Assembly: GCA_020723305.1 (NCBI GenBank)
Contig: DYJC01000023.1
Span: 2,451-66,450, forward strand
DNA length: 64,000 nt
Source of the DNA: Desulfosudis oleivorans
GTDB lineage: Bacteria > Desulfobacterota > Desulfobacteria > Desulfobacterales > SURF-7
Direction of reading: 5' to 3'
Shown piece by piece: positions 27,988-39,779 of the stretch. Position 1 is the stretch's first letter. The number at the start of each line of letters is the position of its first letter. Made by a program: the position numbers and the translations under genes. The notes under the pieces are model-generated. The model searched no databases. It worked only from the letters and a program-made list of their open reading frames with translations, and had not been told where the DNA came from.

Positions 27988-30285
27988 ATGAACAACTTTG
28001 AAAAAGCATTTTCCAATTTAAATATAAGTATGGGGGAACGGGATCAGAGGGCTGCTATCCCCTTCAAAGACTTTTTAAAGCTCCTGTCGGAAAAACCCGG
28101 ATTGATCATGCGAAACATTTTCCGGACGTTTCACGATATGATCATATCCTATGTGGACACAGGGGAAGATGAGTATCCCGATGATCCGGAATCGATTCAT
28201 TATGTCGGATATGACTGTTCCAGACTCTTTATTGAGAATGTCGATAATCCGTTTTTTGCAGACCGGCTCTTTTCAAACCGTCTCATCAATCTTGCAGAAG
28301 CTCTTCGCCATGGCGCCCAGCAGAATAAAATTTACATTTTTGAAGGGCCGCCCGGATGCGGCAAAAGTACTTTTTTAAACAATATCCTCCGAAAATTTGA
28401 AGAATATTCCCATTCTGAAGAAGGACTCCGCTACGAGACCATCTGGAGGATCAACCGGAAACTTTTTGGTACTTCCATTGATGCTGAAATCGCACCTTCA
28501 GCAGAGAAGCTGATCCAGCTTCTGTTGAAGACAGCAGGCGGAAACCCGGGAAAAAATTACAAACCGTCTCATGCCCCCGGCAGCACAGACGAATTCATTG
28601 AAATCCCATGCCCAAGCCATGACAACCCCATTATGATCATCCCCAAGCATTTTCGCAGAGCCTTTTTCGATGACCTGTTTAAAAATGACGAGTTCAAGTT
28701 CATACTTTCTTCTGAAAAGGATTATGCGTGGGTTTTCCGCGATACATCCTGTACCGTTTGCAGCTCTTTATATAGTGCCCTTCTGGAGAATCTGAAAGAA
28801 CCGGAAAAAGTATTTGAGATGATTTATGCCCAGCCCTATAAGTTCAACCGGCGTCTGGGACAGGGGATTTCCGTTTTTAATCCAGGTGACAAACCCTTGA
28901 GCAGGCCGGTGCTCACAAATGAAATTTTGCAACAGAAAATCAACGCCATTCTGCGGGACAGCAATCAGGTGGAATATATCTACTCCCGGTATGCAAAGAC
29001 CAATAACGGTATTTATGCACTTATGGATATTAAATCCAACAATACGGAAAGACTGATTGAACTTCATAATGTCATCAGTGAAGGTGTTCACAAGGTTGAA
29101 GACGTCGAGGAAAACGTCAATACACTTTTTCTTGCGGTAATGAATCCGGAAGATAAAGCCAATCTGAAAGATTCACGATCGTTTCTGGACCGCATCGAAT
29201 ATATCAATATCCCCTATGTCATGGATCTGAACACAGAGGTCAAAATTTATCAAAGCACATTCGGGAAACATATTGAAGGCAATTTCCTCCCGCAGGTGAT
29301 AGCCAATTTCGCAAGAATGATCATCTCCACAAGGCTTAACCCCGAATCCAAAGCCCTTCTTGAGTGGATCGGAACCCCTGAAAAATACCGTCTCTATTGT
29401 GATAAAAATCTTCTGCTTCTGAAAATGGAAATCTTTCGCGGGGTAATCCCGACATGGCTCACCGGAGAAGACCGGAAACGGTTTACCGCCAAACGGAGAC
29501 GAACCATCATTGAAGAGTCGAATAAAGAAGGTTCAAAAGGGATTTCCGGAAGAGATTCCATTAACCTGTTTAATGAATTTTATTCCATATATGCCAAAGA
29601 AGATAAACTCATCAATATGTCCATGCTCTGTAAATTTTTTGAACATTATCAACAGGAAAAGAACAACATAATCCCTGAAGGCTTTCTGGATTCATTGGTT
29701 TGCATGTATGATTACAACATCCTTCAGGAAGTCAAAGAAGCCCTTTACCTGTATAATGAAGAACAGATTTCAACCCATATCCAGAATTATATTTTTGCCA
29801 TTAACTTTGAATCCGGTTCCGTCGCACGATGTCATTATACAGGTGAGAAACTGGAAATCACCGAAGAGTATTTCCGTCGTATTGAAAATTTTCTGCTGGA
29901 GAAAAAAATTGATGACAAGTCACGAATCGCTTTTCGTAAAGATGCGCAGAAAGAATATACCTCAAAAACCCTGACCCAGGAAATCATGACGGAAGAAAAG
30001 CCGATTCAGGAAACAGAGCTTTACCAGAAATTAATGGAACGATATGTGTATAATCTGAAAGAGAAAGTATTGGATCCTTTCCTGGAAAATGAAAATTTCA
30101 GACGAGCGATCAAAGATTTTGACGAAGAAGATTTCAAAACATATGATAAAAAAATCCGGGAGGATGTTACATTTTTAATGAACAATCTATATTCCCGATA
30201 TAACTACTCCAAAAAAGGCGCCAAAGAAATCTGTATCTATGTCATCGACAAAGATCTCACGCGAAAATATGCATCCGCTTCCTGA
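27988..30285 (+). CDS. PrkA/YeaG-family AAA+ ATPase (paralog 2)
   Basis: Walker A GPPGCGKST, CPSHDNP, SFLDRI..INIPY and EGSKGISGR motifs. Confidence 0.8.
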   Translation: MNNFEKAFSNLNISMGERDQRAAIPFKDFLKLLSEKPGLIMRNIFRTFHDMIISYVDTGEDEYPDDPESIHYVGYDCSRLFIENVDNPFFADRLFSNRLINLAEALRHGAQQNKIYIFEGPPGCGKSTFLNNILRKFEEYSHSEEGLRYETIWRINRKLFGTSIDAEIAPSAEKLIQLLLKTAGGNPGKNYKPSHAPGSTDEFIEIPCPSHDNPIMIIPKHFRRAFFDDLFKNDEFKFILSSEKDYAWVFRDTSCTVCSSLYSALLENLKEPEKVFEMIYAQPYKFNRRLGQGISVFNPGDKPLSRPVLTNEILQQKINAILRDSNQVEYIYSRYAKTNNGIYALMDIKSNNTERLIELHNVISEGVHKVEDVEENVNTLFLAVMNPEDKANLKDSRSFLDRIEYINIPYVMDLNTEVKIYQSTFGKHIEGNFLPQVIANFARMIISTRLNPESKALLEWIGTPEKYRLYCDKNLLLLKMEIFRGVIPTWLTGEDRKRFTAKRRRTIIEESNKEGSKGISGRDSINLFNEFYSIYAKEDKLINMSMLCKFFEHYQQEKNNIIPEGFLDSLVCMYDYNILQEVKEALYLYNEEQISTHIQNYIFAINFESGSVARCHYTGEKLEITEEYFRRIENFLLEKKIDDKSRIAFRKDAQKEYTSKTLTQEIMTEEKPIQETELYQKLMERYVYNLKEKVLDPFLENENFRRAIKDFDEEDFKTYDKKIREDVTFLMNNLYSRYNYSKKGAKEICIYVIDKDLTRKYASAS

Positions 30286-30468
30286 CCGTTCCCTTGCCGT
30301 GACAAACACCCATCCTGCTCTTTTCCTTTGACACCCACCCCTGTGTGATAGTATAGGACACCCAATAAATATATCCCACTGCCGCCGGCTGAATTGATCA
30401 TCCGGCCGAAAACCATATGAGCCATTAAAAAATCTGAAATACCCATTTCAGCACATCAAGGAGGGAAA

Positions 30469-31287
30469 ATGATGTTCATATTCAGCAGGCTTTCTTCTAT
30501 ACGATGGATTGTTCTGTTTTTTCTTTTTTCAAGTTCCATGGTACAAGCCCAGGATGTTTTACGGGCAAGCGTCTCTTCTCAGATTGCAGAAGCCTATGGA
30601 AAAAGAATTCTGCCCATGTTTGAAAAAAAAACCGGGATCACGGTTCAGCTTTATGTCGGGCCTTCTGAAACCGCAATTCAGAGGATGGCAAACGACTTCA
30701 GCGATATTGCGATTACAGCCGTCAGTCTGCCTAATGAGTTAAAAGAAAGCGGCTTTGTTGAAATTCCATTTTGCCGGGACTCCCTTGCGGTGATCACCAA
30801 CACACAATGTACACTCACACAGCCCTGCAATATCGATAACCTGACCCTTTCTCAGCTCCGGGATATCTTCAGTGGCCGGATTTCCAATTGGAAAGATCTG
30901 GGCGGACCAGACCAACGTATCATTACAATTGTTCCCGGCCCGGAAACCGGAGAGTTTAAAAATTTCAAACAGCTTGTCATGAGACTGAAAGAGATAAAAT
31001 ATGATTTTATAACATACCAGTCGACCATGGTAATCGAAGGGGTAAAGAGTATCCCCGGTGCGATATCCATTATTGCTCAGGGAGCGATTCCCAGGGATCA
31101 AACCGTAAAAACAATAAAAATAGATGGATTGGCACCGACGGATAAAGAGTATCCGATTTACCTGATCTTTTCTTTTGCTACAAAAGGAACTCCCGGACCC
31201 CTTGCTCAGGCGACCATCAATTTCGCTCTCTCTGAAGATGGAATCCAGTTCATGAAGGAAAGAGGGATGTTCCCAATTATTGAATAA
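30469..31287 (+). CDS. PstS-like (PBP_like_2) periplasmic substrate-binding protein
   Basis: Signal peptide; D.LAVITN and LTLSQLRDIFSGRISNWKDLGGPD motifs. Confidence 0.8.
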   Translation: MMFIFSRLSSIRWIVLFFLFSSSMVQAQDVLRASVSSQIAEAYGKRILPMFEKKTGITVQLYVGPSETAIQRMANDFSDIAITAVSLPNELKESGFVEIPFCRDSLAVITNTQCTLTQPCNIDNLTLSQLRDIFSGRISNWKDLGGPDQRIITIVPGPETGEFKNFKQLVMRLKEIKYDFITYQSTMVIEGVKSIPGAISIIAQGAIPRDQTVKTIKIDGLAPTDKEYPIYLIFSFATKGTPGPLAQATINFALSEDGIQFMKERGMFPIIE

Positions 31288-31325
31288 TCTATTACAATTC
31301 AGTCTGTTTTGAAAAAGGATCAGAA

Positions 31326-32015
31326 ATGAAAAGAGCCTATATTTTTTCACTGTTTGTTTTTGTTATCGCTCTGCAATATCTCACAGGATGTGCAACAGCA
31401 CCCAATACGCAAACAACTGATACAAATACGCCCCGTTTAGAAAAGGTAAAAGAAAAACTGGATGCGGCCGCAGATCAATATTTCCCTCAGGTTCCGGAAA
31501 AAAGCCTGGGAAAAAGCATTCCTGGTGAACCGATCGGTTATGCATATGATTTCAGCAGGCCGTCTGATAAAAACGGTGACATGGTGTTGTTAAAAATTCC
31601 CATGTGCATGGAAAAAAGAGATCAATTCATCTCGTATACCGATCGGGCGAGTAATGCAGCTGGCGCGGCAGCAGTTCTGGCTACCCCCCTGATACTCTCT
31701 GCGCCTGTTCTGGTGGACCCGGTTTTTTTTATTGAAAGAGGTCTGAAAAAAAGCCGGAAAAAAACCGTTGAAAGAACAGGTACCTTATCAACAGGCAGGG
31801 CGCTCCTCTGCGGCAAAAAAGAGCCGGCTCCCGGGGAAACACTGATCATTCAATCCACCGGAGACATGCCGATTACTTACATCAAAACAGACAATCAGGG
31901 ACGATTTTCCATGGATGATATTTTTGCCAAAGCAGGAGACTCTCCATCCCTGAACATTTTCATCAAACAGGAAAATTCGGCGTACTACCTTACAACGATA
32001 TTCAATTCGGAGTGA
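31326..32015 (+). CDS. Hypothetical lipoprotein
   Basis: LTGC lipobox; AAGGA RBS. Confidence 0.7.
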   Translation: MKRAYIFSLFVFVIALQYLTGCATAPNTQTTDTNTPRLEKVKEKLDAAADQYFPQVPEKSLGKSIPGEPIGYAYDFSRPSDKNGDMVLLKIPMCMEKRDQFISYTDRASNAAGAAAVLATPLILSAPVLVDPVFFIERGLKKSRKKTVERTGTLSTGRALLCGKKEPAPGETLIIQSTGDMPITYIKTDNQGRFSMDDIFAKAGDSPSLNIFIKQENSAYYLTTIFNSE

Positions 32016-32088
32016 TGATCAGCACCTGTTCGGCATGGCCATTGAGTGACGATATCAGTAAAATTATCGCAATGAAAAGAGTCTTCAT
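32002..32088 (-). pseudogene. Truncated last cassette (signal peptide only)
   Basis: After a degenerate attC, AAAGG RBS and MKTLFIAIILLISSLNGHAEQV, which runs into the end of the convergent gene. Confidence 0.45.
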
Positions 32089-32105
32089 ATTACCTTTTCC
32101 CTGCT

Positions 32106-32162
32106 GCCCAATCGGCAGATCACCGGCGGCTTTAAGTCATCCACTGGATTTGCTGGTTGTGC
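32106..32162 (-). mobile_element. Degenerate attC site
   Basis: Minus strand GCACAAC ...cagcaaatccagtgg/ccgccggtgatctg... ATTGGGC. The R' GTT is mutated to ATT. Confidence 0.55.
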
Positions 32163-32187
32163 CGTTCCATCTTCACCGGCATTGTTG

Positions 32188-32835
32188 TTAGATCTGTATG
32201 CGTTTATGCGGGTACTTCACTATTCTGGATAAAGGTATCACATCTTCCTTCACGGTAAGCTCTGCCTCGATCATCTCCCAATAGGACGAAGACCCTGGCG
32301 CCGCATCTTCCACCCGTGAGTTAATCTGCAATAAAATACGATATGACCCGGCCTGCCTGGGCAAAAATTCGAGAAGGGCGAACACCCCTTCCTGGGATCC
32401 CCTGCCTCGATCGCTGAACAGGGTTTCCGTGTTGCCTCCTCTGCCCCCAATAAAAGCCAAGAAGCGGGACAAATTGCCTTCTTCTCGATAAAGCGCACGG
32501 CACGAAGAATCTGAGATGGTGAGGGAATAGGGAGTCCCTATCACCAAGGCGACCCGTTTAAGGAAGAACTTCCACCGCATGTTAATCTCATAGGCTGTTT
32601 CAGACTTGATTTTAAGTAATAAACGGCACCATTCCCCTCCGGTGGTGATCGTAATCAGGTGGTCAAATACCAACACCCCGTCTTTCTTTTGGGGGACAAA
32701 ACGCCCGATTTCTCTGCCTGATGACAGTTGCCGACGCTGAATTACAAATCGGTATCCTCCCGCTGACAGGAGAATGCCGATGAAACCGAACAACAGTATG
32801 ATTCCAATCGATGTGTTGATATTCCACCCCTGCAT
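32188..32835 (-). CDS. Integron cassette: hypothetical membrane-anchored protein
   Basis: One N-terminal TM helix; lies between two attC sites. Confidence 0.7.
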   Translation of the reverse strand: MQGWNINTSIGIILLFGFIGILLSAGGYRFVIQRRQLSSGREIGRFVPQKKDGVLVFDHLITITTGGEWCRLLLKIKSETAYEINMRWKFFLKRVALVIGTPYSLTISDSSCRALYREEGNLSRFLAFIGGRGGNTETLFSDRGRGSQEGVFALLEFLPRQAGSYRILLQINSRVEDAAPGSSSYWEMIEAELTVKEDVIPLSRIVKYPHKRIQI

Positions 32836-32893
32836 TCAGAGCTTTTATTTCGAATAGTTATTGTAACTCTTTCGATTTTGTATCGTCTGGTTC

Positions 32894-32957
32894 GCCCAAC
32901 GTATGCGTTACCGGGTGGCTGTTTTGTAGCCAGACCAAGTATACGCATTTGTTGTGT
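32894..32957 (-). mobile_element. attC site of the HicAB cassette
   Basis: Minus strand ACACAAC-aaatgcgtatac..tggctacaaaacagcca..gtaacgcatac-GTTGGGC. R'' is complementary to the cassette's 5' GTTGTGT. Confidence 0.85.
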
Positions 32958-33004
32958 TGTCTAAATCTGTTTTTATTAAAAAGACTTAATCGATATGTCA
33001 ATCT

Positions 33005-33361
33005 TTATCGATGGGCTTCTTTTTTACCCAATGATTCAGCAATAATAGATGTCACTAGAGCATTCATACTTACTCCTTCTTGCTTTGCTCTTGTAGCTAG
33101 CCGAACATGCAAACTTTTAGGTAGTCGCTGTACAAAACGACCACTAGCTTGACTGCTACCAGGTTCCGGAATAGCGTCATTGAATTCCTTTGCTGTTCCA
33201 ATCCACGAATTCATAGCATCAATACCGTTTTTTATTGTCTCTTCAATTGTATCGCCATCAGATATGCAACCGGGTAAATCGGGAAAGGATATTAAATAAC
33301 CTCCTCCTTCTTCCTCTGAAAGGTGTCGGACTTCAAATGGGTATTTGAGTTGGTCGTCCAT
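33005..33361 (-). CDS. hicB: HicB antitoxin (cassette)
   Basis: EEGGGYLISFPDLPGCISDGDTIEE plus RHH domain SGRFVQRLPKSLH..GVSMN. Confidence 0.92.
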   Translation of the reverse strand: MDDQLKYPFEVRHLSEEEGGGYLISFPDLPGCISDGDTIEETIKNGIDAMNSWIGTAKEFNDAIPEPGSSQASGRFVQRLPKSLHVRLATRAKQEGVSMNALVTSIIAESLGKKEAHR

Positions 33362-33365
33362 GGTT

Positions 33366-33602
33366 TTATTCCCCTTCTCCTTCATCGATAAAGCGAACAA
33401 ATTTATTAATATAGATTGGTTTAATAGGGCGGCGTGCCGGAACTGTGAGTTTTGTTCCGTTCGGATGTCGAAAAGTAACATGACTTGTCCCAGGTTGCCG
33501 CCATTCTATATCAAAACGTTTCGCAATATCTTTAAGCGTTTCAATTTGCCAATCATGGGGATTGTTTCGTAATTTGATCAATAATTTTTCAATTTTTGTC
33601 AT
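33366..33602 (-). CDS. hicA: HicA toxin (cassette)
   Basis: GTSHVTFRHP..LTVP..PIKPIYI; directly upstream of hicB. Confidence 0.88.
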   Translation of the reverse strand: MTKIEKLLIKLRNNPHDWQIETLKDIAKRFDIEWRQPGTSHVTFRHPNGTKLTVPARRPIKPIYINKFVRFIDEGEGE

Positions 33603-33607
33603 GGCAG

Positions 33608-33636
33608 ATGATACTGCATATGATATCAAATGTCAA
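33608..33636 (-). promoter_or_regulatory. hicAB promoter with TGATA..TATCA inverted repeat
   Basis: Minus strand TTGACA-N17-TATCAT. Confidence 0.7.
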
Positions 33637-33652
33637 GTTCGCAGTATGCCTC

Positions 33653-33786
33653 GGGTGCAATTAAAAGTGTTGGGTTTAAACCTGAATATGGATTCCGGCT
33701 TTCGCCGGAATGACGGACAGTGCTACTACCGTCATTCCGGACTTGATCCGGAATCCAGCATTTATCCAACAGTTTTGATTACACCC
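33653..33786. mobile_element. MITE family B inserted in the HicAB cassette
   Basis: TIRs GGGTGCAATTAAAAGTGTTGG / CCAACAGTTTTGATTACACCC. Perfect 9-bp TSD GTATGCCTC at 33644-52 and 33787-95. Inverted REP pair inside. Confidence 0.88.
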
Positions 33787-33812
33787 GTATGCCTCTTTTT
33801 ATCGGATTAGCC

Positions 33813-33872
33813 ACACAACAGATTGCTCACGGGGAATGGCTTTTTGTGCTTCCGTGGAGCAAATTGTTCTGT
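33813..33872 (-). mobile_element. attC site of the HigBA cassette
   Basis: Minus strand ACAGAAC-aatttgctccacgg..ccgtgagcaatct-GTTGTGT. R'' is complementary to the cassette's 5' GTTCTGT (34507-13). Confidence 0.85.
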
Positions 33873-33887
33873 TAATTCACAATATAA

Positions 33888-34178
33888 TTAAGCAGATACT
33901 TGGATGGGGTCGATCTCAGAAAGATCTACATTTTGTTTTGCTTGCCAAAGGTTATAACTATCCTGCATATGGAGCCAACTTTCAGGGCTCCGGCCTAAAC
34001 ACTTGGATAAACGGAGAGCCATTGCCGGGCTTATTGAACTTTGCCCCTTCAATATTCTTATAAATGTTGAAGGGGAGACTTTAAGCCGCAGTGCAATACT
34101 CCGAGGCGAAATACCCAACGGTTCCAAATAAACTTCTTGAATAAATTCCCCTGGATGGGGAGGGTTATACATAGCCAT
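33888..34178 (-). CDS. higA: HigA antitoxin (cassette)
   Basis: MYNPPHPGEFI and ISPAMALRLS..GRSPESWL motifs. Confidence 0.93.
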   Translation of the reverse strand: MAMYNPPHPGEFIQEVYLEPLGISPRSIALRLKVSPSTFIRILKGQSSISPAMALRLSKCLGRSPESWLHMQDSYNLWQAKQNVDLSEIDPIQVSA

Positions 34179-34456
34179 TAGTGATAATCCTCATAGTCTA
34201 CAACATAGGCGTTACCATCTTTAAATTCAAAAACGATTCGCCAATTACGGTTAACATCGATCGCCCACAAGCCTTGACGATCACCTTTTAAACTGTGGAG
34301 CCGCCAGCCTGGAGTATTCATATCTTCAATACATGTCGCTGTATCAAGTGCGATTAGGCGTATTCTCAGCTTCTGTTTATGGCCTGGCTGAATCCCGGAC
34401 ATACTACCCGTCTCAAAAAATTTCCGCAGCCCTTTATGTTTAAATGTTTTTATCAC
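34178..34456 (-). CDS. higB: HigB (RelE/ParE-family) toxin (cassette)
   Basis: GTG start; IKTFKHKGL, PGWRLHSLKGDR, NWRIVFEF and DYEDYH motifs. Upstream TATAAT and palindrome TATTGCGCAATA (34475-86). Confidence 0.92.
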   Translation of the reverse strand: MIKTFKHKGLRKFFETGSMSGIQPGHKQKLRIRLIALDTATCIEDMNTPGWRLHSLKGDRQGLWAIDVNRNWRIVFEFKDGNAYVVDYEDYH

Positions 34457-34528
34457 AGATGATATTATATAGCATATTGCGCAATACGCAACACTTTTTT
34501 TCAAGAACAGAACGCCGGGCATCAGTGG

Positions 34529-34601
34529 GCGCAACGGCCATGCTTACCGGCTTGTGTGAAGCGGAGCGTAACACAAGTCCGCGTAAAGCATGAGGTTATG
34601 T
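34529..34601 (-). mobile_element. attC site
   Basis: Minus strand ACATAAC-ctcatgctttacgcggacttgtgt..acacaagccggtaagcatggcc-GTTGCGC. R'' is complementary to the cassette's 5' GTTATGT. Confidence 0.88.
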
Positions 34602-34635
34602 GCAACTATTAAAATTTATTCAGCTTATAAACAAT

Positions 34636-35415
34636 CTAATTAATTTTCATTATAACATATGTAACTATTTGAATTGGGCTTGTTACGATATCCAAAGGAA
34701 CTGTCCATAAATAATTAAAATGTTTCAATATATATCTAACCCTATCTCTTTTCACCCACTTAATATCTTCTTCACATATTACATGAAAGCGCCTATCCTC
34801 ATCGATTATATTTGTTACAATATCAAGATTTCGTTTGGGGTAAAGAGCTTTCCTTCCTGCCTCTATTTGAAAACGTATGAACTTCGATTTCTCTCCTGAC
34901 TTTCCCAATATAGTATATTTATCAAATTTGATTGTTACTTTTTCTTCATTTAATGTATCTGACAATTCAGTAATTTCTGACAAAATTATAGGTTCTTTTT
35001 CAGATGGAAGAATTTCTTCCTCCAATTTTCTATAATGCATCGTTCTTTGCATTTTGTCTTTTTTAATGATTTTTTTTATTTCATGAAGATCTTCATTTAT
35101 TACCGGAGGATCTTTATAGTAGATTGTCTCAGTGTTATTTAGTGGATTTACCTTTTTGGGGATAAGTATGCTAACAAATCTCTTTCCTTGTTCTTCAAAT
35201 AGGATGCCTCCTACTTTTACCTCTATGTACTCTTCATGGTTTTTAGAGAATGTATTAATAATCCATCCATTAATTTCTCGCGGTGTACTATCTATTTCCC
35301 GAACAGATTGATAATTATTTTTCAAATCTGAGGTCAATATAAGACTAGCACATCCAAAAAAGAAGTTTGCAGATGAGAAGATAAAAAATAGTATAAGTTG
35401 GTTTCTTTTAATCAT
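34636..35415 (-). CDS. Integron cassette: hypothetical lipoprotein
   Basis: FFGC lipobox; very AT-rich; bounded by attC sites. Confidence 0.75.
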   Translation of the reverse strand: MIKRNQLILFFIFSSANFFFGCASLILTSDLKNNYQSVREIDSTPREINGWIINTFSKNHEEYIEVKVGGILFEEQGKRFVSILIPKKVNPLNNTETIYYKDPPVINEDLHEIKKIIKKDKMQRTMHYRKLEEEILPSEKEPIILSEITELSDTLNEEKVTIKFDKYTILGKSGEKSKFIRFQIEAGRKALYPKRNLDIVTNIIDEDRRFHVICEEDIKWVKRDRVRYILKHFNYLWTVPLDIVTSPIQIVTYVIMKIN

Positions 35416-35430
35416 TTATTTTTTACATGC

Positions 35431-35493
35431 ACATAACGGTGCGCCTTACCGGTGCGCGGCTTTTGCGCTTCCGCGTATAGGCGCTGGTTATGA
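35431..35493 (-). mobile_element. attC site
   Basis: Minus strand TCATAAC-cagcgcctatacgcgg..ccggtaaggcgcacc-GTTATGT, starting 2 bp after the stop codon. Confidence 0.88.
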
Positions 35494-35495
35494 AA

Positions 35496-35855
35496 TTATT
35501 CATTTAGTGGATTTGGTAGCCACTTTTGAGTTTTTCTGTCATAAACCTCGCCAGTGTATCCATTCACCTTAATCCCATTTTTCATCGCACCATATGCAGT
35601 AGATCCAAAAAAGCTATCTACTACATAATAATACTGATCATCTTTATAATATCCATCTACTGTTTTTTTTATAACTTTTAGGTGTTTCATTCTATAGATC
35701 ATTACAATCTGACTACATTCATCTGGTGTAATTTTGAAACCATATAGGCAGACTTGATTTGAATCGCCTATATATTTGAGCTTATAGCTGGAACATGCAA
35801 AGAATATCAAAACTACAAACATTAAAAAAAATATTTTAAGCATTGTTTTGATCAT
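35496..35855 (-). CDS. First integron cassette: small hypothetical lipoprotein
   Basis: FFAC lipobox; AT-rich; between the attI-like site and an attC. Confidence 0.75.
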   Translation of the reverse strand: MIKTMLKIFFLMFVVLIFFACSSYKLKYIGDSNQVCLYGFKITPDECSQIVMIYRMKHLKVIKKTVDGYYKDDQYYYVVDSFFGSTAYGAMKNGIKVNGYTGEVYDRKTQKWLPNPLNE

Positions 35856-35873
35856 ATTCGATCTCGTTTCATT

Positions 35874-35990
35874 TATTAACAGGTCAAAATTTGACCTGAT
35901 ATTGACTGCTTTTCGGGCACTTTTGCCCTGATAATAGCCAAATCAGGGGGTTTTCGGGCACTTTTGCCCTGATAATTGTACCTGATATTT
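35874..35990 (-). mobile_element. Putative attI site with accessory repeats
   Basis: Minus strand GTTAATA core at 35874-80; IR CAGGTCAAA-A-TTTGACCTG; 26-bp direct repeats at 35910-35 and 35951-76. Confidence 0.6.
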
Positions 35991-36024
35991 TCGCAATAAA
36001 TCGTCTAAAAATTGGGAGCTGTTT

Positions 36025-36053
36025 TTTATATAACAGAACCCAACCCCTGCCAA
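36025..36053 (-). promoter_or_regulatory. Pc-like cassette promoter
   Basis: Minus strand TTGGCA-N17-TATAAA pointing into the array. Confidence 0.55.
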
Positions 36054-36089
36054 ATAAAAGATTCACAACAGAATCATTTTATGGATAGT

Positions 36090-36183
36090 ATGTCAACATA
36101 AAATGACCGGAAACTCCTGGATGAAGTCTGCGAAATCATGCGGTTACATCGTTATTCCATATTCCATCTATACACGAAATTGG
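36090..36183 (+). pseudogene. intI: Integron integrase N-terminal remnant
   Basis: Translates MST*NDRKLLDEVCEIMRLHRYSI, resembling the IntI N-terminus KLLD.VR..IR..HYS..T. Has an in-frame stop and a 7-bp ATTCCAT duplication; the rest is missing. Divergent from the cassettes. Confidence 0.7.
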
Positions 36184-36262
36184 ACATCTTACTCATCTTT
36201 CCTCTTTAGCCCAGGATTTTTTGAGATTTCAGTTCGCAGTCTATATGTTGTTCCATAACAGG

Positions 36263-36682
36263 TCATACAGACCCAATGGCGTCTCGCACAGCCGCCTTGA
36301 GTTCTGCCATGGTTGCCGGTTTTGTTAACAGTCCGGTAATTCCCCCAGGCAGATTTTCTTTATCCAATATATTTTCCGAATACCCGGAAGAAAGAATAAT
36401 CGGAATATCCTTACGGATATCCAAAATTTTTTTGGACAGTTCAAGTCCGGTCATATCCGGCATCATCAGATCCGTAATAATGAGATCAAATCCATCCGGC
36501 ATCTTATGAAATAATTGAAAGGCTTCTGTTGCATTGCTCTGGACAGTCACCTGATATCCGAGATTTTCCAATATCCGTTTGCTGACATGAGAAATATCCT
36601 GGTCATCATCTACAAAAAGAATTCTCTTGTTATTCGAAGAGTTGTGTTCGTCTTTCCGATTTTTTCGAAAACGTGTAAACAT
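36263..36682 (-). CDS. Single-domain response regulator (receiver)
   Basis: ILFVDDD, DLIITDLMMP, SG and KP motifs. Confidence 0.88.
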   Translation of the reverse strand: MFTRFRKNRKDEHNSSNNKRILFVDDDQDISHVSKRILENLGYQVTVQSNATEAFQLFHKMPDGFDLIITDLMMPDMTGLELSKKILDIRKDIPIILSSGYSENILDKENLPGGITGLLTKPATMAELKAAVRDAIGSV

Positions 36683-36848
36683 GTGGTTTCCTCATCAGCA
36701 TCTATACAGTTCTCCAACACATTGTCCGTTTTCTTATATCATCAATAAATTCCAAATCTGTCAAACCCATTTCCATATCCGGAACAAAAAGACCTCTCTT
36801 TCTCGTGCATACACCCTCTTGAGTCAAATCGGGGGAAAATAACCATAT

Positions 36849-36991
36849 GAGCCAATTTCAAAAGTCTCTTGTTGTAGTTCCGGCGAAAACTAGACACGCA
36901 GTGAAGCTTAGCGCTATCCAGTATTTTCGGCTCTTTTCTGGGCACTGACTTTCGCCGGTGTGACACTTTATAATAGTTTTTAAATTGGCTA
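36849..36991. mobile_element. MITE family A copy 3
   Basis: Same TIRs and body; 4-bp direct repeat ATAT. Confidence 0.8.
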
Positions 36992-37044
36992 ATATGATTT
37001 TGTTTTTGCGCCGTGGAATTCATTTGACAAAAAATTGTTTATTA

Positions 37045-37061
37045 AGTAAGTGTTACTCACT
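37045..37061. promoter_or_regulatory. Putative TetR operator
   Basis: AGTAAGT-GTT-ACTCACT near-palindrome just downstream of TTGACA (37024). Confidence 0.5.
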
Positions 37062-37084
37062 CTTTCCGGGTGTCACATCAGGAT

Positions 37085-37248
37085 GGGTGTAATCAAAACT
37101 TTTGAATAATTAAATTATGTGGGGCTTCCAGCCGCGATATGGGTTTTTTCAAGATTTCAGTAAAAAAAGTGTTGTCGCGGCAAGATGCCACAATGGGAAT
37201 AATCAAAACAATTGGGTAATCGAAATCCAACAGTTTTGATTACACACC
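37085..37248. mobile_element. MITE family B copy 2
   Basis: GGGTGTAATCAAAACT...AGTTTTGATTACACACC; flanks CATCAGGAT/CATCAGGAG (8/9 TSD match). Confidence 0.75.
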
Positions 37249-37303
37249 CATCAGGAGCTGTGTATTGCTCTTGGTGAAAAGGATTGTAAGGCATACGAAA
37301 TAT

Positions 37304-37903
37304 ATGGCCAAAACAAGTACCAAAAAGCTTCCGCCGGGACGACTGAAAATAGTCCGGGCACTGAAAACCCTGTTGGGTAAAAAGGATTTTAATTCCATCA
37401 CCACCGCAGAAATCGCAAAAACCGCCGGAGTTACGGAAGGTCTGATATACAAGTACTTTAACGATAAACGGGATCTTCTGTTCAAGGTACTTCTGGAACT
37501 TTTTGAACAGTTTCTGTTGCAGATGGAAAAAGATCTCAAGGGTGTCGAAGGGTCTCTGAACAAGCTTCGTTCGATTATCCAGTCCACCCTTTTCTGGTAT
37601 GATCAGCAAAGGGTTTTTACCAGAATCCTGCTGGTTGAAGTCCGCAATTCTCCTGATTTTTTCAAGAGTGAAGCATACCAGCAATGTGTTCGTGATTACA
37701 GCAAGATCATCATGGATATCATTCATGAGGGAATCGGTCTTGATGAAATCCGGAAGGATATAAAGCCTTCCGTTATCCGGCAGGTTATACAGGGATCTGT
37801 TGAGCATGTCTGCCTCCCGGCCATTATTTTCAATCGGGAAATCGCAGTAGAACCGGCTACAGAGGACCTCTGTCGAACAATATTTTTTGGGATTAAACAA
37901 TAG
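37304..37903 (+). CDS. TetR/AcrR-family regulator
   Basis: ITTAEIAKTAGVTEGLIYKYFNDKRDL HTH. Confidence 0.9.
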   Translation: MAKTSTKKLPPGRLKIVRALKTLLGKKDFNSITTAEIAKTAGVTEGLIYKYFNDKRDLLFKVLLELFEQFLLQMEKDLKGVEGSLNKLRSIIQSTLFWYDQQRVFTRILLVEVRNSPDFFKSEAYQQCVRDYSKIIMDIIHEGIGLDEIRKDIKPSVIRQVIQGSVEHVCLPAIIFNREIAVEPATEDLCRTIFFGIKQ

Positions 37904-37925
37904 CGAAAAATAAGGAGGAAAAACC

Positions 37926-39779
37926 ATGGCACAATCCATTGCAGACCGAAGAGATGTTGATTTTGTTCTTTATGAACAACTGGAGGCTGAAAACCTGGTC
38001 AAGCTGGACAGGTATAAAGAGCTGAACAAAAAAATGTTTGATATGGTGGTTACGGAAGCCAGAAACTTTGCAATCAAGGAGATCCTCCCCTTAAATGAAG
38101 AAGGGGACAAGATCGGCCTTATATTTGAAAACAATCAGGTTATCGTGCCGGAATGTTTTCATCGACCGTTCAAGCTCTTCCGGGAAGGTGAATGGATTGC
38201 AATGAACGAAGATCCTGAAGTCGGCGGACAGGGATTCCCCCACCTGATCACCCAGGCCTGCATGGAATATATCATGGGCGCTGACTTTTCCTTTTCCGCT
38301 TTTGGAATGGTATGTCATGGCGCTGCAAAAATGATCGAACTTTTTGGTACGGAAAAGCAGAAAGAGATTTTCATGAAGAAAGTATACTCCGGCGAATGGG
38401 GCGGTTCCATGGTGCTCACCGAACCCGGTGCCGGATCGGATGTCGGATCGCTAATCACATCAGCCGTGAAAAACAGTGACGGCACCTATTCGATTTCAGG
38501 CAACAAGATCTTTATCACCTGCGGCGAACACAACATGCAGGAAAATATCATCCACCCGGTTCTTGCCCGGATTGAAGGAGCGCCTGCCGGTACCAAAGGC
38601 ATATCCATCTTTATCGTTCCCAAGATCTGGGTCAATGAGGATGGAAGCCTGGGTGAACCAAACGATATTGTCTGCACCGCAATTGAAGAAAAAATGGGTC
38701 TCCATGCCAGCCCGACAACGCAGTTGACCTTTGGCGGAAAAGGGAAATGCCGCGGTTTTCTCCTGGGAGAAGAAAACAAAGGGATGAAGGTGATGTTCCA
38801 CATGATGAATGAAGCACGGCTCGGTGTGGGAGCCCTGGGTTTGTTCAATTCCTCCTGTGCCTATCTCTATGCCATCAATTATGCCAAGGAACGCGTTCAG
38901 GGAAGAGATCTGGCCGATTTTCTGAACAAGGATGCACAGCCTGTCACCATTCTGCGCCATCCGGATGTGCGGAGAATGCTTCTGGGGATGAAGGCATATA
39001 TGGAAGGGATGCGGAGCCTGGTCTATTACACGGCCTATCTCTTTGATAAGGAGGCCAATGAAAAAAATGCAGAACAGAAAGAAACCATTACCGGACTCAT
39101 TGAGCTGCTGACCCCGATCATCAAATCCTATTGCACGGACCGCGGTTTTGAATGCACGGTTCAGGCCATGCAGGTTTACGGCGGATACGGGTATACCGCA
39201 GATTACCCGGTAGAACGCCTGATGAGAGACTCAAAAATCAACTCCATTTATGAAGGAACCAACGGGATCCAGGCCATGGACCTTCTGGCCCGCAAACTCG
39301 GCATGAAAAAAGGCATGGTTTTCATGAACTTTCTGGGTGAGATTCAAAAAATCATTGCCAAGGCCAAAGAAACCAAAGAGCTGGAAAGCCTCGCCAAAAA
39401 ACTGGAAGAAACCATAGGTCACCTGGGCCAGGTTGCAATGCACATCGGCAAAACCGCCATGTCACCGGATATGAAAGTTGCATTTTCCTTTGCTTCCCCT
39501 TTCCTGGATGTAATGGGCGACGTGATCATGGCATGGATGCTGTTGTGGAGAGCTACGGTAGCCGCGCCCAAACTGAATACGCTGATCGGTGACGCAACCG
39601 GTGAAGATCGTCTGGATAAAATCAATAAGAATAAAAATGCAGCCTTTTATGAAGGACAGATCCAGTCTGCCAGACATTTCATTGAAACCGTTCTCCCGGT
39701 TACCGTAGGCAGAATGAATTCCATTCAAAGCAACAGTTCTGCAGCGGTGGATATACCGGAAGCCGCATTTGGAGGATAA
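37926..39779 (+). CDS. Acyl-CoA dehydrogenase
   Basis: LTEPGAGSD, GNKIFIT, EEKMG, YGGYGY and IYEGTNGIQA motifs. Confidence 0.95.
   Translation: MAQSIADRRDVDFVLYEQLEAENLVKLDRYKELNKKMFDMVVTEARNFAIKEILPLNEEGDKIGLIFENNQVIVPECFHRPFKLFREGEWIAMNEDPEVGGQGFPHLITQACMEYIMGADFSFSAFGMVCHGAAKMIELFGTEKQKEIFMKKVYSGEWGGSMVLTEPGAGSDVGSLITSAVKNSDGTYSISGNKIFITCGEHNMQENIIHPVLARIEGAPAGTKGISIFIVPKIWVNEDGSLGEPNDIVCTAIEEKMGLHASPTTQLTFGGKGKCRGFLLGEENKGMKVMFHMMNEARLGVGALGLFNSSCAYLYAINYAKERVQGRDLADFLNKDAQPVTILRHPDVRRMLLGMKAYMEGMRSLVYYTAYLFDKEANEKNAEQKETITGLIELLTPIIKSYCTDRGFECTVQAMQVYGGYGYTADYPVERLMRDSKINSIYEGTNGIQAMDLLARKLGMKKGMVFMNFLGEIQKIIAKAKETKELESLAKKLEETIGHLGQVAMHIGKTAMSPDMKVAFSFASPFLDVMGDVIMAWMLLWRATVAAPKLNTLIGDATGEDRLDKINKNKNAAFYEGQIQSARHFIETVLPVTVGRMNSIQSNSSAAVDIPEAAFGG

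Follow-up and report, generated by a model that had tools for sequence, protein, structure and literature searches.

What is left of a chromosomal integron once its integrase gene has been deleted, and do its cassettes still move? The question is raised by a minus-strand gene cluster in a 64,000-nt stretch of the Desulfosudis oleivorans genome (contig DYJC01000023.1 of assembly GCA_020723305.1, C13 in our genome numbering), hereafter called the window. A first-pass annotation made from the sequence alone had described the cluster as a fossil integron in which attI, the cassette promoter Pc and the cassette array survive and the integrase is almost entirely deleted. We conclude with high confidence that positions 32025-36250 are a chromosomal integron that lost its intI gene by deletion, that is, a cluster of attC sites lacking an integron integrase (CALIN, the IntegronFinder term) or pseudo-integron. 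What remains is an attI-like site, the intergenic region, 24 intI codons, four cassettes with intact attC sites, a fifth whose attC has decayed, a scar and a truncated remnant (Table 1). This reading rests on the homology of the head of the array to the platform of the full-length integron integrase encoded in the same genome, on attC structure with covariation, on cassette-precise boundaries elsewhere and on insertion relative to an empty site.

The genome (G000) is a 5.4 Mb draft in 47 contigs with a contamination estimate of 3.65%. We compared it with four congeners (G001-G004), with two genomes of other families in the same order (G017 and G019), and with contigs of public sequencing runs, of which X1 is the likely source run, X2 and X4 come from other studies and X3 is a further run. 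Such contigs show presence and bridging, and rare forms are dropped from them. The nearest named records are Desulfobacteraceae metagenome-assembled genomes, with a neighbouring acyl-CoA dehydrogenase 96% and 94% identical in amino acid sequence.

Head of the array and attC sites

At the head of the array, window positions 35870-36161 read as a paralogue of the region upstream of the intI gene on contig C1 together with the first 24 codons of that gene. Over 253 nt, window 35926-36160 and C1:3-255 are 73.5% identical by blastn. In frame, the stub encodes MST*NDRKLLDEVCEIMRLHRYSI followed by unrelated residues, and the C1 gene encodes MSTQNNRKLLDEVQEVMRLHHYSI and continues as IntI. Beyond codon 24 the stub no longer resembles the full gene, and about 93% of intI is gone, which bears out the proposal of an almost wholly deleted integrase. 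The unique tail that follows the stub is covered by contigs of two other studies, X2 record 15 (36096-36222) and X4 record 30.

Between the stub and the first cassette we found an inverted pair (35870-35888 / 35890-35908) with a GTT at 35880-35878 on the cassette strand, and four direct copies of a CCTGATAWT-type motif that include a perfect 26-nt repeat (35910-35935 and 35951-35976). In G001:C8 and G004:C245 the same region separates an intact intI from its first cassette. Its role as attI is putative, as is the exact crossover point. A weak promoter-like site at 36062-36091 (+) faces intI, in a promoter scan that was not above chance.

The integron integrase was searched genome-wide with the NCBIfam model TIGR02249 at its cut-off of 265 bits. 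A single intI exceeded the cut-off, at C1:185-1182 and in two pieces of 296.7 and 126.7 bits, so that the full-length gene that the first-pass annotation had advised looking for elsewhere in the genome is present, albeit with a 13-N run inside it. There was no match on the window's contig C13, and none of the 14 control genomes exceeded the cut-off. Contig C1 starts inside the attI-like region, and hence the C1 integron's own array lies on another contig. A complete integron has an adjacent intI with the integron-specific additional domain, and in the window only 24 intI codons are left; no intI lies within cluster distance of the array, and its four good attC sites are spaced 0.7-0.9 kb apart, within the CALIN definition of at least two sites less than 4 kb apart.

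In order to examine the attC sites we folded their bottom strands (the window's + strand) as single-stranded DNA against 200 shuffles per site. The z-scores single out four of the five hairpins claimed on the minus strand as good attCs and show the fifth to be degenerate, as had been said, its unremarkable fold being matched by 68 of the 200 shuffles. The four good sites share a plan comprising a short AAC/GTT R helix, an unpaired spacer and an imperfect L stem. In attC1, attC2 and attC3 the single-base bulges cluster on the bottom strand's 3' arm, in line with the extrahelical bases predicted for folded bottom strands; attC4 passed the structural filter solely in the opposite orientation, with its bulges then on the 5' arm. 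The bulged bases of attC1 are T and C. Canonical extrahelical bases are T and G, and such bulges act in strand choice. The orthologue of attC5 in G003:C285 is a clean hairpin with a GTT core, so the window copy is a decayed one.

All five sites lie just after a stop codon, at distances of 2 to 47 nt, and the core signature read earlier from the letters is also present. The R'' box of a site complements the core at the 5' end of its own cassette, which is that of the preceding site, and not its own downstream core. The attC1 R' core GTTATGT pairs exactly with the attC2 R'' box ACATAAC, the core GTTCTGT (34513-34507) with the attC3 R'' box ACAGAAC, and the attC3 R' core GTTGTGT with the attC4 R'' box ACACAAC; GTTGGGC pairs with GCACAAC with one mismatch. 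Granting only two bases at each of the four variable positions, the three exact matches have a probability of about (1/16)^3. The GTTRRRY consensus is broken at R/Y positions in four of the five R' cores, again as reported. The sites had also been called dissimilar; they are not very much so, and share a common L-box pattern with a mean column identity of 62%.

A structural hairpin scan of our own (AAC...GTT, spacer, stem of at least 10 pairs) gave 271 sites in 5.4 Mb, about 1 per 20 kb, with around 0.2 expected in 4.2 kb. Only two four-site clusters exist in the genome, namely this array and one on C39 beside an intI fragment. The census is a lower bound, as known sites such as C2:30240 escape the filter, and with a background of 271 sites lone matches far from an attI module carry no weight. 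The same scan run without filters was swamped by unrelated folds and was discarded.

Rfam has no attC family, and positions 30000-39000 gave three sub-threshold chance matches only. The covariance check on the attC sites was made with substitute models from the genome itself. The model R1, for which the four window sites served as training set, added a single strong site elsewhere in the genome, C2:30240, which adjoins another attI-like module (150 of 1037 candidates scored); we judged it too narrow as an attC model. R2, which adds three further sites of the same genome, gave 11 matches in nine loci of other genomes. All nine matches in loci with an intact intI lie upstream of intI on the opposite strand (four in G001:C8, three in G019:C34 and two in G017:C1), and the remaining two flank a copy of the HicAB cassette in G004:C314. 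With a further model, R3, 10 of 10 non-window matches at loci of the own genome are on the predicted cassette side and strand.

In an alignment of 16 sites, 90.1% of cells are paired compared to 71.3% +/- 1.7 after shuffling and 27-41% when the partner is slid, and compensatory changes on both sides occur in 8 of 16 pairs; this alignment was fitted to the model, which favours structure. A sequence-only profile from 12 non-window sites placed the window sites as the top four in 64 kb (E 1.5e-16, 5.4e-6, 5.6e-4 and 1.3), and only the attC1 result is fully independent because two of the 12 training sites are close relatives of attC2 and attC4. R2 thus picks out attC arrays next to an intact intI, on the expected side and strand, in three genomes other than this one.

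Other attC-like sites were seen in the genome. On contig C39 (G000:C39:24420-27287, L026) there is a 3' intI fragment covering model positions 198-315 with one internal TAA. Over 115 nt it shares 99% identity with the C1 gene; it lacks the 5' half and any attI, and is directly followed by four attC-like sites reaching the contig end. Further attC-like sites occur at contig ends far from attI modules, at G000:C5:43-1161 and G000:C4:96800-97386, with C5:1082-1161 scoring 63.2 bits with R3. The C5 and C4 end sites may be assembly-broken pieces of the main integron's array.

The island, its cassettes and their relatives

The genes flanking the array are about 80 bp apart in L029 and G001:C3, as against 4.2 kb in the window; by their coordinates L029 and G001:C3 are probably one contig and we count them as one empty site. 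Homology to relatives stops at 32002-32024 on the left and restarts at 36251-36269 on the right, with the left island edge fuzzy (32025-32045). From the short spacing in the congener it follows that 32025-36250 is a 4.2-kb island. Contigs of X1 cover the whole stretch at an even depth of about 52 and bridge both flank junctions (record 1 spans 31800-33236 and record 8 spans 35977-36500), and bridging is also seen in other studies, from the left flank to the array in X2 record 9 and from the stub to the response regulator in X4 record 30 (1508 nt).

Cassettes of this array recur elsewhere with cassette-precise ends. A copy of the HicAB cassette in G004:C314, a contig of another species, shows 96.5% identity over 751 nt; the homology starts exactly at G|TTGTGT and ends at the R' of attC4, and the copy is preceded by an attC2-like site instead of attC3. 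In X2, record 13 (3370 nt) matches only window 34534-35438, which is exactly cassette 2, in another context, and in record 9 the left flank is connected to cassette 5 through 1911 nt in place of the window's 182. Both X3 and X4 contain the joint 33815>34532, corresponding to the array minus the HigBA cassette; its shorter side has only 29 letters and is weak alone, and the arrangement is the same as that in G004:C314. Together with the empty site, these boundaries show that the locus does not have the fixed synteny among relatives that had been named as evidence against an integron.

The array is one-directional, on the minus strand of window 32000-36260. From attI it runs through two lipobox proteins, a 22-nt scar, HigB/HigA, HicA/HicB and a membrane protein to a truncated open reading frame, the order first proposed. 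Pfam supports HigB, the helix-turn-helix (HTH) domain of HigA and HicB. The RelE-fold toxin HigB followed by an HTH antitoxin is the arrangement that defines HigBA, and the HicA call, below its cut-off, is supported by its position adjoining hicB. A search with PADLOC found no defence-family match among the cassette proteins except the HTH antitoxin (E 0.0079).

At least one of the toxin-antitoxin cassettes has a promoter-like site of its own, since that ahead of hicA was the best in a promoter scan of 32000-35500. Upstream of higB, at 34457-34500, a palindrome overlapping a TATAAT hexamer can be read from the sequence, and is likely to be the HigBA operator/promoter; the promoter scan did not list it and a terminator scan took the palindrome on the + strand. 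The 22-nt scar probably represents the terminal bases of an attC whose cassette was deleted. No second copy of it was found with up to four mismatches in the genome and the compared loci of relatives.

Inside the HicAB cassette, between its start and the promoter-like site ahead of hicA, sits a miniature inverted-repeat transposable element (MITE) whose terminal inverted repeats are about 21 nt long. It is multi-copy in this genome and in congeners, with a summed X1 depth of about 1190 as against about 52 for the flanks. A MITE-free joint (33643>33787, with nine letters fitting both sides) is present in X2, X3 and X4, and an X2 contig carries HicAB without the MITE.

Other genes occupy the same intergenic spot in relatives. 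In L028, a contig of the nearest named relative, and in G002:C303 it holds unrelated genes, and attC was not found there. In the latter (L122, about 1300-1500; another congener species) a PIN/VapC-like gene stands beside the lipoprotein gene, with a homologue at G000:C12:308615-309242. The intergenic spot beside the lipoprotein gene is apparently a hot spot for small accessory genes. Insertion of the island by the integrase at CCTGTTAT, a motif that directly follows the stop codon of the response-regulator gene, was considered and rejected, because the motif is also present in the island-free genome and the island starts 8 nt past its GTT. Further along the window, an element of about 160 bp with MITE-type terminal repeats lies at 37086-37247, between the upstream region of the response regulator and a TetR gene; alignments to the relatives L027 and L028 show gaps and overlaps there, and the first attC model has a weak, chance-level match inside it.

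Table 1. Features of the island and its flanks, in window coordinates (+, - strand;. no strand assigned)
Feature	Position	Strand	Basis or remark
Whole island (cassette array, attI-like region, intI stub, short unique tail)	32025..36250	-	Flank comparison with relatives
Right flank, response-regulator gene	36263-36682	-	3' end faces island
Unique 89-nt tail between stub and flank	36162..36250	.	No other genome copy beyond 36160
intI stub, 24 codons, stop at codon 4	36090..36161	+	19/24 residues identical to C1 IntI N-terminus
intI-attI intergenic region, conserved blocks	35990..36089	.	Column conservation >=0.9 in some blocks, 19 modules
attI-like site	35870..35989	.	Repeat search; homologous region beside intact intI in congeners
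Cassette 1 gene, 119 aa, lipobox-type signal peptide (read from sequence)	35496..35855	-	Pfam, no family match
attC1	35431..35493	-	z = -3.73; 20.4 bits, E 5.4e-6 (profile without window sites); covariance model matches, but as training site
Cassette 2 gene, 259-aa lipobox protein	34636..35415	-	Pfam, no family match
attC2	34529..34601	-	z = -2.87; 96% identical to first attC beside intact intI, G001:C8
22-nt scar ending in core GTTCTGT	34507..34528	-	Read from sequence
higB toxin gene, GTG start at 34456 read from sequence	34178..34456	-	PF05015 9.4e-24, 84.1 bits (cut-off 27)
higA-type HTH antitoxin gene	33888..34178	-	PF01381 5.3e-7, 30 bits (cut-off 23)
attC3	33813..33872	-	z = -2.65; weak in profile without window sites (E 1.3)
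MITE in HicAB cassette, 134 bp, 9-bp target duplication	33653..33786	.	Absent from G004:C314 cassette copy
Promoter-like site ahead of hicA: TTGACA, 17 nt, TATCAT	33608..33636	-	11/12 consensus matches; consensus match only
hicA-like toxin gene	33366..33602	-	PF07927 E 4e-4, 20.9 bits, below cut-off 27
hicB antitoxin gene	33005..33361	-	PF15919 8.3e-11, 42.5 bits; PF05534 3.4e-9, 36.9 bits; both above cut-off
attC4	32894..32957	-	z = -2.79; orthologue in G004:C314 recovered by R2
Cassette 5 gene, 215 aa, one N-terminal hydrophobic helix	32188..32835	-	Pfam, no family match; 87% nt identity to G003:C285
attC5, degenerate	32106..32162	-	ATT for expected GTT, broken L stem; z = -0.38; covariance model 11.6 bits, E 1.6
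Truncated 20-codon open reading frame, signal-peptide-like, distal end	32027..32089	-	Read from sequence
Left flank, lipoprotein gene	31326-32015	+	3' end faces island

Activity of the array and alternative explanations

Several observations weigh against the reading of the locus as a decayed integron. The attC models were all built from sites of this genome and not from a curated attC model. No promoter above chance points toward the cassettes (6 promoter-like sites against 4.4 +/- 1.7 expected), and the surviving Pc of the first-pass annotation is at most putative. A 13-N run (G000:C1:574-586, L001) splits the C1 intI into halves that are in different frames, so that the intactness of this gene cannot be judged. 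The degenerate attC5, the scar and the MITE inside a cassette are signs of inactivity, and the presence of the stub junction in contigs of two other studies means that the integrase loss is old. Finally, X1 contigs contained no excision joints, in a type of data that cannot show rare forms.

With its integrase lost, the array would be unable to rearrange itself, and excision or insertion of cassettes would require an integron integrase acting in trans, for which the C1 enzyme is the obvious candidate. The two toxin-antitoxin cassettes probably have their own promoters, and loss of the array would be penalised. The attI-proximal lipoprotein genes appear to be promoterless, with no convincing promoter-like site on the attI side of the cassette strand, and would depend on read-through from that side. 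That present-day populations still mobilise the cassettes in trans is a tentative proposal, to which we give somewhat less than an even chance.

The same element may instead have been fully inert since it lost the integrase. Its genes would then be ordinary chromosomal ones, frozen as a set that the two toxin-antitoxin pairs keep in place, and it would differ from its relatives by plain deletions and a MITE insertion. We regard the case for this as evenly balanced. It accommodates the stop codon in the stub and its divergence of about 25% from the full gene, as well as the decayed attC5, the 22-nt scar and the interrupted cassette; the stub junction recurs at >=88% in the two other studies, so that the loss predates those lineages, and a simple deletion could explain the distal difference from X2 (182 as against 1911 nt). 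However, four attCs retain their full structure, the columns of the attI-like motifs rank with the most strongly conserved in the 19 modules described below, and an integrase of the same lineage is encoded in the genome. Cassettes 2 and 4 also occur elsewhere with other neighbours and cassette-precise ends, in copies that may lie outside the stubbed locus. The description of the locus as a fossil was therefore right about the loss of intI and is possibly too strong otherwise, given the intact look of four attCs and of the attI-like site and the presence in trans of an integrase of the same lineage.

It is very improbable that no local intI was lost and that the array was split from a complete integron by rearrangement or seeded at a secondary chromosomal site. 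Both routes are listed for CALINs by Cury et al. (2016, PMC4889954), and the assembly does break at several attI-like regions, with C1, C41 and C35 starting inside them, but neither route would leave an attI-like site, an intI promoter region and 24 intI codons correctly ordered and oriented at the head of the array. An assembly or binning artefact that joined a foreign integron fragment to this chromosome could be imagined from a draft of this fragmentation and contamination, in which the attI-like region, repeated in 19 copies, disrupts assembly; it is extremely improbable, as the separate X1 assembly bridges both junctions at even depth (records 1 and 8) and the X2 and X4 contigs named above also bridge the flank junctions. 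There is next to no chance that the hairpins are generic intergenic palindromes (terminators or repetitive extragenic palindrome-like repeats), which would suit their position after stop codons and a terminator-like match overlapping attC3 on the + strand, but not their AAC/GTT R boxes, unpaired spacers, one-sided bulges in three of the four sites and complementarity to the upstream core, nor the recovery by the same model of arrays beside intact intI genes in other families, nor the cassette-precise break at G|TT in G004:C314.

Related platforms and known systems

The decayed integron in the window is one of many such platforms. An attI-like region with the start of intI occurs at 19 loci in the genome, including the window and the full C1 gene, in copies that are 67-89% identical. 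The intI remnants stop at differing points, at C1 coordinates from about 198 to 351, with unrelated DNA beyond each. These differing end points suggest independent decays rather than copies of one truncated unit, and we rejected on the same ground an attI-stub module that moves as a discrete unit with a common boundary. The cassette side is assembled at 14 of the loci, and half of these (7/14) have at least one attC match on the expected side and strand: C13, C2, C43, C44 (at 114153), C1 (at 127197) and two on C34. One further locus, on C45, has a weak attC match only (E 0.27). Over all 19 copies, per-column conservation is >=0.9 in the proximal direct repeat and in three blocks of the intergenic region, compared to about 0.6-0.7 in the dead coding stub, which hints that the attI and intergenic blocks may have a function.

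Module matches are also found in four other species of the genus (14, 10, 6 and 4), of which two have a full-length intI and a third a partial one at a contig start. Among 26 related genomes, module matches were found in 9 and an intI above the cut-off in 12. Complete integrons in two other families (G019:C34, L131, and G017:C1, L132) have attCs similar enough to be found with the model from our genome, and G017 contains at least three intI genes above the cut-off; several integrons per genome seem to be common in this order. We found no printed description of many attI/intI-start platforms in one genome, in a narrow literature search.

A speculative model can be built on these data, in which, in this genus, one working integrase serves many dispersed landing pads. 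Each pad would consist of an attI site, the intI promoter region and a dead intI start, and selection would preserve the pads as extra points of insertion and expression instead of letting them decay. Were it true, arrays such as that of the window would be live satellites and not fossils. The 19 loci with one full intI, the matches in congeners, the blocks conserved at >=0.9 and the attC sites at half of the assessable loci speak for such a distributed system. The copies nevertheless differ by 20-30%, their stub ends differ, and the other half of the assessable pads show no attC. On balance we consider the model rather unlikely.

Integrase-less arrays and pseudo-integrons are already well described, and this locus is another example. 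Cury et al. (2016, PMC4889954) counted 279 CALINs against 164 complete integrons, with intI pseudogenes near 15 of the 279 (about 5%) in a test that demanded more than 50% profile coverage. They found IntI elsewhere in the genome for half of the CALINs and raised the possibility of excision in trans. CALINs outnumber complete integrons, and how most of them arise lacks an explanation, since so few have a recognisable intI pseudogene nearby. The window provides a clean worked example of one route, namely local loss of the integrase. A 24-codon stub is too short for the pseudogene test of that study, which would miss it; comparison at the DNA level with a resident platform exposes both the stub and the attI that screens with protein profiles miss. 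Furthermore, the genus offers replicate platforms at different stages of decay beside one full integrase, which makes servicing in trans testable. What the array contributes to the organism is modest, comprising two toxin-antitoxin pairs and three small envelope proteins of unassigned function.

Like the CALINs of Cury et al. (PMC4889954), the array has at least two attC sites less than 4 kb apart, no nearby intI, a typical number of about five sites and an IntI elsewhere in the genome. It differs in that its origin is visible, from the attI-like site and the 24-codon stub at its head. With the pseudo-integrons known from Xanthomonas and other surveys it shares a dead chromosomal integrase and a persisting array: Nemergut et al. 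(2008, PMC2426708) found about one third of intI genes to be pseudogenes and more than one intI in one fifth of surveyed bacteria, and Ghaly et al. (2021, PMC8618304) described inactivated integron integrases in Xanthomonas. The lesions in those cases are mostly frameshifts, stops or partial deletions that affect one or two genes in a genome, whereas the window has lost about 93% of the gene, and the genome holds 17 further stub or partial platforms besides this one and the full one.

The sedentary chromosomal integrons of the Vibrio cholerae type (Richard et al. 2024, PMC13108822) likewise contain toxin-antitoxin cassettes and attCs of a common pattern, but the array described here is tiny, has no integrase in cis and belongs to a host in the Desulfobacteraceae. 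Close counterparts are also the complete integrons of the congeners (G001:C8 and G004:C245), which have the same divergent layout and an attI-like region of 76-79% nucleotide identity; the first attC of the G001 integron matches attC2 of the window at 96% identity. These congener integrons differ from the window array in retaining a full-length intI, which scores 441 and 448 bits against the cut-off of 265.

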